Positions 9,001 to 12,000 of a stretch of 25,564 nt of DNA are shown piece by piece. Source of the DNA: a virus (Duplodnaviria; Heunggongvirae; Uroviricota; Caudoviricetes). Every line of letters begins with the position of its first letter. Positions within the stretch are counted from its first letter, which is position 1. A program made the position numbers. Location of the stretch: positions 1-25,564 of IMG/VR virus record IMGVR_UViG_2698536657_000010. One strand, written 5' to 3'.

Positions 9001-12000
9001 GCCGGAAGCAGGTTTTTTCTGACAGCGTCTTTCGTCATCCCCGCCTGCGCCATAGCCTCAGATCTCCTGATGCACTCCATACCAATTGCGTGCATTTTTT
9101 CCGGCGTCATTCTTTCAAGCTCCAGCCCTCTCATGATCCACCTCATCTTTCACTCAACTGTCTCCATATGACGACACTGTATATAAAAACATACTCAGGT
9201 AAAACAGGTATTTTTCTTCTCCGTACACCCCGCTTTCTCCACTACCTTAAGCGGAAAATTTAGTGCTCATTTTTTCCTTTTTTCTCCTCCCAGAAATTCA
9301 GCTCCAGCTGAACAGGGATCCTTATACAAAGATCCGGAGGATGATCGGCAGGTCGTTTTCTGCCCGAAATGCAGTTATTGACACAAGTCCAGGGCGTTAA
9401 AGCAAGCCCTCTGTTAACACCGAGAGAGCCTGTTGTAACGTTCCGGCTGATTCTCCACTTACGTGAACGCGTCACTACCGGTGGTGTATCACCCCCCGGC
9501 ATATAAACACCTTTGATCGCACTGGCGTGACGTCCGCACTCATCCGGCTCTTCCGAACGCTGATACCATGTGCGAAGAACCAGATCACTTCGGGCAACAA
9601 ACGGGCCACCCTGCAGACGGGTATAGGTTTTCCAGTCACCTTCACTCGCAGCCCGGTGCAATTCTCCCAGCGCCGGACTTATCCTGTCAGCATGCGCCTG
9701 ATTGTTAAAACGACGCAGTTCCCGCCACACACTCACCGGAGCACTGCCGATAAACTGAAACTGCTTTATTCCCCACAAAGATGCCCATGCCGAAGCATGG
9801 CGGGCTGTCACCACCAGCGTATGGCCCGTCTCATGGTTAATTCCGCCGGACGCACACCCGTCAATATTCATTCCGATATGTTTGGCGATATAGGCAGTGG
9901 CACTTCCCAGATCATCAAGAACCGGTTTTATCTCCAGATGGGATTTTCTTCCTGCTTTGCGGATGGTCACTTTTTCCGCGTCATCATCGCGGTTAGCGTA
10001 ATACTCAAGAATTTCCTGTAAGGCGACGGCGTACTCCTGATGCACATAAAGAACACCATGCCAGTGCGGCGTACCGTCATGATGCGGTTCGGCGCTCCTC
10101 AGACCAAAAACCCCAATTCCGCGGCGCCTCAGCGTTGCACTGATCTGACGCCATAGCCCGGAAAAATAATTCTGAGTGTCTTTAGGGCTTGCGCCGTTAT
10201 AACGACGGTTGCGGTATCCCGTCTCCAGCCAGGCGTGATATTTCGATGGTGCCGTCATCGTGAAAAACAGCCCGACATACCCCTGCTCCTGCGCCACACC
10301 TTCAAAGCGTGCCAGGTCTTCCAGCCCCTTTACACGCGTCATCAACTCCGACCGACGTTTCTCCGCATCTGAAATGCTGCTGTCAACCAAATCGAGAAGT
10401 GAAAATTTCTCCCCGGTTTCTTCATCCTCAACGTCTGTTTCTGCCATCAGCCTGCGACCATGCTTACGTCCCGCCAACCAACGCTGCACCCACTCATAAC
10501 TACAGTGCGGTGATGACTGCCGACGAACGCTCCCCATCGCTATAAGCAGATGTTCACGCCAGCGTCGAGAAAATACCCGAAGTTTTCCCTGCCACCAGCG
10601 AACACTCAGCATCCGACTGATGGCAACAGTCAGTTGATCCAGCGTCATCTTTCTGCCAATAAAACGTTTCCAGTCCGGTGGCTCCATACGGAAATGTTCA
10701 ACAAGACCCGCAACCATGGCATAAATGGCACCTGCCGCCACATCCGCATCTTCATCCGCAAGAAGAGCACTCAGATGCTGCATTTCAGCAATAAGAAACG
10801 CGGACAGATCCTGCGCCAGTAAATGTGCATCCCCGTCGTCTCCATCCACCAGGGAATTGAATCGCCATGTCATGGAATGAACCGCGCCGTATGCCTGATC
10901 AGACGCAAGGCCACCAAACAGCCAGCCCGGTAATTCATCCGGATTAATGGCATAACGTTTATTCACACCAGTAATACACGGCAAATCCTTCTGAACCATC
11001 AACGCAAACTTTTCCCGGGCACCGGCGAACCCCTTTGTCTGCCACGCGCTGCTGATCCGGCGTCCCAGCTTTACAGACACAAAACGTGGCAGTCCGGAAA
11101 AAGCGCTGTTCACCTCCTCAGTGAATATCAACTCTTCTTCCGGCTCAGGCATGCGCGGACCTCCCGCTGAATACACGGTCATATGTCCTCCCGCATAACG
11201 GGTAACCAGACACCCCGCCAGATGGCGGAGTGCCGTTTCAGGATTTCAGGAAAAAGAGCTTTACGGGTTATTCCCCGGTTCGTTAACCAGGCGCTGCATA
11301 TCCCGCAGATCGTCCGCCAGGTAACTGAACGTGGAGGCAATGTAATCAGGTGCAATCCGGCATCCCTGATCACAAAGCATATTGAAGTACATAACTCTGG
11401 CGATGGTGAGAGCCCGGTACAATCTGCGGTTGATTTCGGTCTGGATGTGACGACGCTCCGCGATAGCGCGGTGCTGTTTACGGTTTGCCATGGTGTGGCC
11501 TCGTACGTAGTGAGTTGTGATAACCCACAGCCGCGAGTTGAGAATCTCGGGGTGGCAGGACGTATGGGGTTCTCAACACCGGCTACGCACGACTCCGGCC
11601 CGACCAAAGTCGGCCCCACACGCCCCACCATGATTCTTGCGAGAAAAAGATGTGGCGATACGGTACGCACAAAAAAACCGCTGGCGCGGTTGTGCGCGTG
11701 CATAGTCAGCGGGTTGAGAATCCCGGCCCCCGTTTTATGAGGTGCAACGGAAATGTAACCCGACCAGGTGAACACTGGCAAGCGGTTTTTTTGTATCGTC
11801 ACTGGCTTCACTTCTGCTATTTCTCTTATCCCGTTTTAAGGTTGCAGGAATCCCGCCGCATGAGCGGTGTATTTCTCATTCCTCTTATTTCCGGTTAATT
11901 CAGGCGAAGGTTAAATTTCTGTATCCGTATTTATTTCCCACCTCTTTTGTATAAACATCTCAATTCCTGCAGATGTTCAGTCTGCTCAATCTCTGCTTTA

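Follow-up and report, generated by a model that had tools for sequence, protein, structure and literature searches.

The window analysed here is a stretch of 25,564 nucleotides (nt), positions 1–25,564 of the Caudoviricetes record IMGVR_UViG_2698536657_000010 in IMG/VR, that holds a prophage. In the leftward early operon of this prophage, an interval at 11492–11930 between a DUF4222 gene and a replication gene of the P2 gene A type was singled out in an initial annotation as non-coding and as a candidate for a small RNA, an attenuator or the control region of the gene-A operon. The genes surrounding the interval all lie on the minus strand, as do the features described below unless a plus strand is given. 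Along that strand come the stop codon of the DUF4222 gene (11931; assigned by Pfam scan), about 135 nt of AT-rich DNA (11795–11930), an A-tract, a promoter, a gene for the small RNA (sRNA) IsrK that includes its own terminator, a 35-nt spacer, a gene for a C4-type antisense RNA, a 56-nt leader, the ATG (11489–11491) of a 76-codon open reading frame (ORF) and gene A. Positions 11492–11794 are a complete IsrK–C4 RNA module and, with high confidence, an RNA immunity module of the type known from P4 and Gifsy-1, placed in the early operon of a prophage that has a P2-like immunity region and is integrated beside cpxP. This regulatory system, named the 'IsrK-C4 immunity system' in the literature, has already been described and is found here by existing curated models. 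The module marks the point at which the prophage most probably decides on expression of its anti-repressor and replication genes.

Two RNA genes between the DUF4222 gene and gene A

The whole window was scanned with Rfam at curated thresholds, followed by a more permissive scan of the module regions. Two families score above their gathering thresholds in the interval: isrK (RF01394; 57.0 bits against a threshold of 50, E = 2.5e-11), which matches over the full length of its model and defines a 75-nt sRNA gene at 11671–11745, and C4 (RF01695; 68.7 bits against 45, E = 5e-13), which extends over model positions 1–87 of 87 and defines an 88-nt antisense RNA gene of the C4/CI type at 11548–11635. 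These E-values put the interval far beyond chance. The proposal of a small RNA, an attenuator or a gene-A control region, for which a covariance search had been suggested, is thereby given substance as two known RNA families on the predicted strand, upstream of the derepression gene and gene A.

IsrK is predicted to be a primary transcript of about 75 nt with its own promoter and Rho-independent terminator. The promoter, PisrK (11752–11794), was recognized by a consensus scan and by conservation over 47 related loci, and comprises the A-tract ACAAAAAAACCGC (11782–11794) and sigma-70-type hexamers, TTGCCA at −35 (11776–11781) and TTACAT at −10 (11753–11758), with a 17-nt spacer; the 5′ end of IsrK, a G at 11745, falls 7 nt downstream of the −10 hexamer. 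Those loci vary in the spacer but hardly at all in the A-tract and the −35 hexamer, and conservation of the extended −10 is at least 90%. IsrK itself is built from a first hairpin, a second hairpin that carries a target site, b1, in its loop, a linker with a further target, a1, and the terminator (11671–11691), and its minimum free energy (MFE) fold contains the three hairpins of the family consensus together with one small extra hairpin of three base pairs (bp) in the linker. The minus-strand intrinsic terminator that had been flagged at 11671–11690 was recovered by a terminator scan as AACCGC-GCCA-GCGGUU-U7 (11691–11671), with the stem at 11691–11676 and the T7 run reaching 11671; it corresponds to the terminator helix in the isrK alignment of Rfam and forms the 3′ end of IsrK.

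The 3′ half of this terminator with its U-tract (11669–11685) and the A-tract region (11778–11794) form a 17-nt inverted repeat that is 94% complementary, and a weaker version of the repeat is present in the second module described below. A role for the A-tract ACAAAAAAACCGC as an antiterminator was considered and rejected, because other classes of module lack either the A-tract (the L009 type) or the complementarity (L050); the A-tract is probably UP-element-like instead.

The C4 RNA has a 17-bp closing stem around two hairpins, and its MFE fold is that of the family consensus. In this fold it exposes two words: a′, AGUCGUGCGUAG (11583–11594), in the loop of the second inner hairpin, and b′, GUUGAGAA (11570–11577), which is single-stranded after that hairpin. 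IsrK, directly upstream, carries complements of both, b1 (GAUUCUCAAC, 11713–11722) in the loop of its second hairpin and a1 (CUAUGCACG, 11697–11705) in its linker. Two further complements lie downstream, b2 (GAUUCUCAAC, 11537–11546) 2 nt 3′ of the end of C4 and a2 (CUACGUACGA, 11501–11510), which overlaps the Shine-Dalgarno (SD) sequence GAGG (11499–11502) of the 76-codon gene. The inverted repeats noted at 11537–11579 by the initial annotation, of which GTTGAGAA (11537–11544) and TTCTCAAC (11570–11577) are 100% complementary, and the additional copy at 11713–11722, where GCGGGTTGAGAATCCCGG (11709–11726) is 89% identical to 11533–11550, are the b′ word and its targets b1 and b2. Between b2 and a2, and abutting a2, the MFE fold of the 5′ untranslated region contains a spacer hairpin, GUGGGUU-AUCAC-AACUCAC (11510–11528); at this position related loci have different yet self-complementary sequences, such as GUGAGUUUU/AAAACUUAC, by visual inspection and without a count.

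The extent of the module follows from its conservation. A query of window positions 11100–12300 matched 938 E. coli records, of which 932 fall in the 80–90% identity band, and the matches listed cover query positions 277–695, that is, window 11376–11794. Homology among the related loci stops abruptly at the A-tract, at 11794, and the E. coli matches listed have the same boundary. The module is therefore 11492–11794 together with the first 38 or so codons of the downstream gene, and 11795–11930 is unrelated, variable intergenic DNA outside it, so that only the first of these two parts of the originally proposed span stands, with two RNA genes in it rather than one.

The first gene that the module would control (11261–11491) encodes a 76-amino-acid (aa) epsilon-like 'derepression' protein, a putative anti-repressor. 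Its E. coli homologues are annotated as derepression proteins, and a profile of 12 homologues aligns with P4 epsilon at a probability of 92.7% in hhalign (E = 4e-7). The protein is a marginal relative of epsilon. More widely, the genes that directly follow C4 in the loci listed encode 56 distinct proteins, of which 50 belong to the epsilon-like family, five form a cluster of 63–67 aa and one has 185 aa. Gene A (9260–11182; 640 codons) encodes a replication endonuclease of the P2 gene A type (Pfam Phage_GPA, 264.7 bits; 32% identity to P2 A, E = 2e-77). The prophage also encodes, on the plus strand at 21143–21451, a 102-aa helix-turn-helix immunity repressor of the P2 C type (42% identity to P2 C, E = 3e-20), which would be the target of the epsilon-like proteins, a role in which its binding and inactivation are presumed. 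No NCBIfam model matched the derepression-like protein of either module, the DUF4222 protein, orf61 or the Ash-like ORF discussed below.

A second module and covariation of the antisense words

Two motifs had been reported to recur 8 kb away. One is a separate 19-mer, treated with the prophage context; the other is a second IsrK–C4 module at 19862–20190. Its C4 RNA gene (19915–20002) folds as expected and matches RF01695 end to end at 75.1 bits. When the two C4 copies are compared on the 27 base pairs of the Rfam structure, 18 pairs are unchanged, 4 have changed on one side and 5 on both, and none is broken; identity is 74% in paired columns and 38% in unpaired ones. Two C4 copies that fit one structure through compensatory changes show that the recurrence is a second copy of the two-gene module, and they bear out the prediction that changes in the hairpins would be compensatory.

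The IsrK-like gene of module 2 (20113–20190) matches RF01394 end to end (46.2 bits, E = 1.7e-8) and ends in a terminator at 20113–20134 found by the terminator scan. It contains b1, AUACCAC (20159–20165), and a1, GUCAACGG (20142–20149), and the C4 RNA contains a′, UUUCCGUUGACG (19950–19961), and b′, GUGGUAU (19937–19943), both of which are unlike the words of module 1. Downstream are b2, AUACCAC (19904–19910), and a2, GUCAACGGA (19872–19880), which overlaps the SD sequence GGAGG (19870–19874) of a gene (ATG 19859–19861, end 19604) for an 85-aa protein. This protein, a clear relative of epsilon, belongs to the Pfam Derepression family (37.3 bits against a threshold of 27) and matches P4 epsilon in BLASTP (E = 3e-7). 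The modules differ by a spacer insertion or deletion of about 75 nt. With different words and a different epsilon-like gene, module 2 would be an independent gate that does not cross-react with module 1.

Whole-molecule prediction of C4–target duplexes was uninformative, since it takes no account of intramolecular structure, and it gave way to probes confined to the exposed a′ and b′ segments. With these probes, the best duplexes on the whole leader of module 1 are those with a2 (−20.2 kcal/mol), a1 (−15.0 kcal/mol) and b1 (−19.5 kcal/mol); the cognate a′/a2, a′/a1 and b′/b1 duplexes rank top on the leader of each module, and b′/b2 is an exact match of 7–8 nt across both modules (an 8-mer in module 1). 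In the predicted folds of the full-length leaders of both modules, b1 and a1 of IsrK pair with b′ and a′ of C4 (z-scores of −2.1 and −5.1), an arrangement equivalent to the translationally silent 'structure A' of Gifsy-1 (PMC4825925).

Comparison across related loci provides a test of these pairings. With the invariant C4 core GGGGCCGACTTYGGTCGGGCCGG as the query, at least 119 IMG/VR loci were retrieved, and the 119 listed, together with the two copies in the window, gave 121 copies of C4. These contain at least 29 a′/b′ combinations, made up of at least 22 a′ loops and at least 9 b′ words, and in nearly every locus listed perfect complements of 7–10 nt lie at fixed offsets both upstream (b1 then a1) and downstream (b2 then a2). 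Pairing was counted column by column in an alignment of 47 sequences of the short-spacer class, drawn from the loci listed and the same set in which the promoter was examined; these counts replaced a test of the longest complementary run (G·U allowed, 200-nt windows) that separated cognate from non-cognate partners weakly, especially for b′. For a′ with a1, 99.3% of cells are paired and 7 of 9 pairs show double changes; the corresponding values are 97.4% and 6 of 10 for a′ with a2, 87.8% and 4 of 8 for b′ with b1, and 88.5% and 4 of 8 for b′ with b2. Permuted partners pair in 69–71% of cells (75% at most) and slid registers in 17–62%, controls that are not formal probabilities given the relatedness of the sequences; the number of independent word combinations nonetheless makes chance pairing implausible. 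Covariation of the C4 stems is uninformative in this set, because the loci were chosen by an exact C4 core and their stems barely vary. In all 32 distinct leader variants among the 47 loci, a2 runs directly into a conserved, G-rich SD block, mostly GAGGCC, ahead of the ATG.

The a′ word of module 1 was seen in none of the other 119 loci listed, yet it matches its own a1 and a2, which implies continued selection. Among the loci listed, a′ loops and b′ words assort independently, one b′ occurring with several a′ loops and vice versa, a pattern suggestive of recombination or of diversifying selection acting on the specificity of RNA immunity. Two modules that would not cross-react, together with the at least 29 word combinations, illustrate how such specificities diversify.

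Known systems, proposed regulation and its alternatives

Rfam scans of two known systems return the same pair of families in the same order on one strand. In Gifsy-1, isrK lies at 34240–34316 (79.3 bits) and C4 at 34131–34214 (69 bits); in P4, an isrK match at 8615–8692 covers seqA (60.8 bits) and C4 at 8420–8507 covers CI (74.9 bits). A further family, RF03163 ('a1, b1 targets of C4'), overlaps isrK in both (48.1 and 44.1 bits, respectively).

The Gifsy-1 order, in which an IsrK with a promoter of its own and a leaky intrinsic terminator is followed directly by a C4-type RNA and then by an anti-repressor, is like that of the window. Part of IsrK transcription in Gifsy-1 reads through the terminator into orf45–anrP (Hershko-Shalev et al. 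2016, PMC4825925). In structure A the middle of IsrK pairs with a downstream segment, which keeps the long RNA translationally silent; short IsrK, acting in trans, switches on translation of the read-through mRNA, and induction of Gifsy-1 depends on it (PMC4825925). The same study describes STnc1160 as a processed RNA downstream of IsrK with complementarity to it, and P4 seqA as a structural homologue of IsrK (PMC4825925). Hfq binding and trans-activation of the read-through mRNA by IsrK have been shown for Gifsy-1 only (PMC4825925). The cargo differs, an ORF6N-type anti-repressor coupled to orf45 in Gifsy-1 and a 76-aa epsilon-like protein with its own SD as a2 here, as does the position, after Q in the lambdoid late region in Gifsy-1 and in the early operon upstream of gene A in the window.

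P4 (PLE–seqA–CI RNA–seqC…epsilon, alpha) shares with the window the isrK-then-C4 order on the same strand, antisense words that are complemented both upstream and downstream, an epsilon 'helper derepression protein' and a replication gene downstream, and an artefactual Ash ORF over the RNA. It differs in the distance from CI to the start of epsilon, about 245 nt, and in an overlap of epsilon with the 3′ end of an obsolete 'cI protein' ORF, whereas here the start is 57 nt after C4 with the SD inside a2; its replication gene is the alpha primase rather than the P2 gene A type; P4 is a satellite, whereas the window holds a prophage with a P2 C/Cox switch and a lambdoid Q and lysis region; and, unlike P4, the window carries two modules in one operon.

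RF01695 is named for the c4 antisense RNA of P1 and P7 (Citron and Schuster 1990, as cited in PMC2864571), and c4 and c4-a1b1 are listed as motifs of gamma-proteobacteria and phages (Weinberg et al., PMC2864571). The P1 anti-repressor Ant is regulated by C4 RNA and Icd (PMC8201110). Through the RF01695 family model, the immI region of P1 and P7 (c4–icd–ant) resembles the window in its two words a′ and b′, its a1/b1 and a2/b2 target pairs and its control of an anti-repressor; the window differs in having no interposed icd-like ORF and in an a1/b1 region that is a discrete terminated sRNA, IsrK. Heteroimmune alleles of P1 and P7 differ in their recognition words.

The cultured Escherichia phage P88 (Xuanwuvirus), a complete P2-like myovirus, is another close counterpart: it has 81.5% nucleotide identity over window 11376–11794 and the same order of Cox, early genes, module, a 76-aa derepression protein and replication endonuclease, except that an extra small ORF separates the derepression gene from gene A. 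Its record carries no annotation of the RNA genes.

From these systems we propose, largely by analogy, how the module might work. PisrK would drive synthesis of the 75-nt IsrK, ending at the terminator (11671–11691), and read-through transcripts would carry C4 followed by the mRNA for the epsilon-like anti-repressor gene and gene A. The c4 RNA of P1 and P7 and the CI RNA of P4 are RNase P substrates (PMC5499578), and mature C4 is likewise predicted to be released by RNase P and to repress in trans at this locus. Once cut from the read-through transcripts, C4 would accumulate, pair with b2 and a2 and block ribosome binding on the anti-repressor gene; the loss of translation would probably also bring Rho-dependent polarity on gene A, and both genes may in this way stay off in the lysogen with no need of the protein repressor. 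Since IsrK contains decoys of both targets, it would sequester a′ and b′ in cis within the precursor, while short IsrK could titrate C4 by competition in trans. The ratio of IsrK to C4, set by read-through of the terminator, may then decide whether the anti-repressor is made, and the anti-repressor would in turn open the early operon by inactivating the P2 C-type repressor.

Several points weigh against this reading, or against parts of it. We infer transcription at this locus, the fraction of terminator read-through, the processing of C4 and the repression itself, all from related systems, and the sign of the IsrK effect is the least certain step in the mechanism. The literature is divided on that direction, since short IsrK activates in Gifsy-1 (PMC4825925) and seqA is needed to establish immunity in P4 (PMC3632133). 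The regulated start in Gifsy-1 is that of the upstream orf45, inside the C4 region and coupled to the anti-repressor, whereas a2 here lies on the anti-repressor's own SD, so that control may differ in its details. The 76-aa protein scores below threshold against Pfam Derepression (PF25738; 17.9 bits against 27) and has no BLASTP match to P4 epsilon. RF03163 (c4-a1b1) has no match at E values up to 1 in 11200–12300 or 19400–20600, although a1 and b1 are present functionally. The a′/a1 and a′/a2 duplexes of module 1 each include one G·U pair, and their longest perfect Watson–Crick run is only 5 nt. Finally, the module-2 isrK match, at 46.2 bits, is below the gathering score of 50, so that by the score criterion alone it is not a member of the family.

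The alternative that survives best keeps the same RNAs and gives them a strictly P4-like mechanism, in which pairing of C4/CI with a1/b1 (seqA) and a2/b2 (seqC) on the nascent transcript causes premature termination and IsrK/seqA is a co-target needed for immunity rather than a decoy. We regard this as possible, if on balance rather unlikely. P4 has the same order of isrK-like element and C4, with epsilon as the next annotated gene after the ORF over CI; covariation with C4 is as good for the upstream sites as for the downstream ones; the P4-like prophages of S. Typhi require IsrK-like elements, and seqA is essential for the establishment of P4 lysogeny (Barquist et al., PMC3632133); and modulation of the IsrK terminator by STnc1160 has been raised (Hershko-Shalev et al., PMC4825925). 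By contrast, the sole intrinsic terminator lies upstream of C4, and Gifsy-1 IsrK activates expression when supplied in trans (PMC4825925). The overlap of a2 with the SD in every related locus examined suggests that the primary event is a block at the level of translation. The two mechanisms are compatible and may coexist, as a block of translation can itself yield Rho-dependent termination. Such termination following a translation block occurs in P1 (icd) and in P4 (kil/eta).

A coding function for the interval, with the RNA motifs secondary, is very unlikely. Three ORFs overlap 11492–11930, at 11179–11811, at 11183–11740 (plus strand) and at 11650–11898 (plus strand), and the first is the only one with a family match, to Pfam Phage_ASH (PF10554); an orf45-like ORF could also start at the AUG at 11629–11631 within C4. 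The Phage_ASH profile matches translations of both modules (28.7 bits for 11179–11811 and 27.4 bits for 19666–20250, against a threshold of 26), the E. coli relative SCU-171 has an annotated 'ash family protein' over the equivalent of module 2, and mutation of the orf45 start codon or an early stop in orf45 lowers IsrK-dependent anrP translation in Gifsy-1 (PMC4825925). The profile, however, also matches the obsolete P4 'cI protein' ORF (8168–8584; 59.7 bits), which occupies what Rfam identifies as the C4/CI RNA gene, and the P4 immunity factor is described as an RNA (PMC4825925; PMC3632133); the match here thus reflects translated RNA-gene sequence, and the 'Ash protein family' appears to be largely that. 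Such a protein would extend across a promoter, a terminator and two structured RNAs, overlap the entire 76-aa gene in another frame and contain the spacer indel of about 75 nt that separates the modules; variation obeys base-pairing and not a reading frame, in that stem changes are compensatory and antisense words covary; and no NCBIfam model matches. The initial view that the interval holds no convincing ORF is therefore sound.

Least likely of all is a decayed remnant, that is, RNA-gene homologues without regulatory activity in a defective mosaic prophage, for although the prophage joins a P2-like int-C-cox-A region to a lambdoid Q and lysis region and its closest E. coli relative has several pseudogenes, both modules retain intact promoter hexamers, terminator, stems, SD and ORF as well as both words and their four targets, which makes decay unlikely, the a′ word absent from the other 119 loci listed is matched by its own a1 and a2, and the functional phage P88 shares the layout.

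With the IsrK–C4 immunity module as the preferred reading, we put forward, as a tentative and more doubtful extension, that two orthogonal gates act in series in one early operon, each with its own epsilon-like anti-repressor, and that such RNA gates rather than RecA/LexA are the induction switch of this group of P2-like and P2/lambdoid hybrid phages, with the ratio of IsrK to C4 as the sensor. If this were true, the second gate could act on repressors of P2-like prophages resident in the same cell or give protection from P4-like satellites. For annotation, the practical result is that a 300-bp 'gap', or a spurious 'Ash family protein', becomes two RNA genes, a promoter, a terminator and four antisense target sites. 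Current understanding is unchanged, as the system is already described for P1/P7, P4 and Gifsy-1 and noted in other prophages; some features are mildly interesting, namely the presence of two orthogonal modules in a single operon, an a′ word absent from the other 119 loci listed, and an a2 site that falls directly on the SD of an epsilon-like gene while the prophage's own repressor is of the P2 C type.

Prophage context and other elements

The right end of the window is the E. coli cpxP-cpxR-cpxA region, adjoined by the integrase, C-type repressor and Cox genes in an int-C-cox layout that matches P2. From there the early operon runs leftward through orf61, module 2 with the 85-aa gene, a 3′–5′ exonuclease, RecE, small genes, DUF4222, module 1 with the 76-aa gene, gene A, DUF968, the Q antiterminator and a SASA esterase with lysis genes. 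The prophage occupies 1–22519 and host DNA 22706–25424. The element is a mosaic integrated beside cpxP: its integrase, C repressor, Cox and gene A are of the P2 type, but it also carries a lambdoid Q antiterminator together with a SASA (NanS-like) esterase, a holin and a lysozyme. Among complete E. coli genomes, the nearest matches only 78% of the window, with 91% identity.

The other motif that recurs 8 kb away is part of a widespread linker-like element that begins AAAUACACCGCUCAUGCGGCGGGAUUC (11836–11874), located between the DUF4222 gene and PisrK and thus outside the module. It has a second copy at 19528–19566 and a weaker one at 14691–14729, and its 19-mer CACCGCTCAYGCGGCGGGA occurs at 11851–11869 and 19543–19561, two copies where 0.02 are expected. 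The element is about 40 nt long (AAAYACACCGCUCAYGCGGCGGGAUUC...) and includes a small CCGC-UCAY-GCGG hairpin. The 19-mer is found in 77 IMG/VR stretches, and the element lies about 15–40 nt upstream of the likely SD and start of many different genes, with unrelated flanks (45 distinct contexts). It has no match in Rfam, and has the look of a 'linker' at mosaic boundaries or of an RNA hairpin that belongs to phage early operons.

Two further RNAs were identified by the Rfam scan. A full-length match to the sRNA STnc100 (RF02076; 148.5 bits against a threshold of 47) lies at 4632–4839, within the lambdoid late region, and is flanked by the SASA esterase gene and by the genes located upstream of that gene. 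A match to naRNA4/CssrE (RF02564; 76.6 bits against 59.5) is located on the plus strand at 25475–25552, in host DNA downstream of cpxA.

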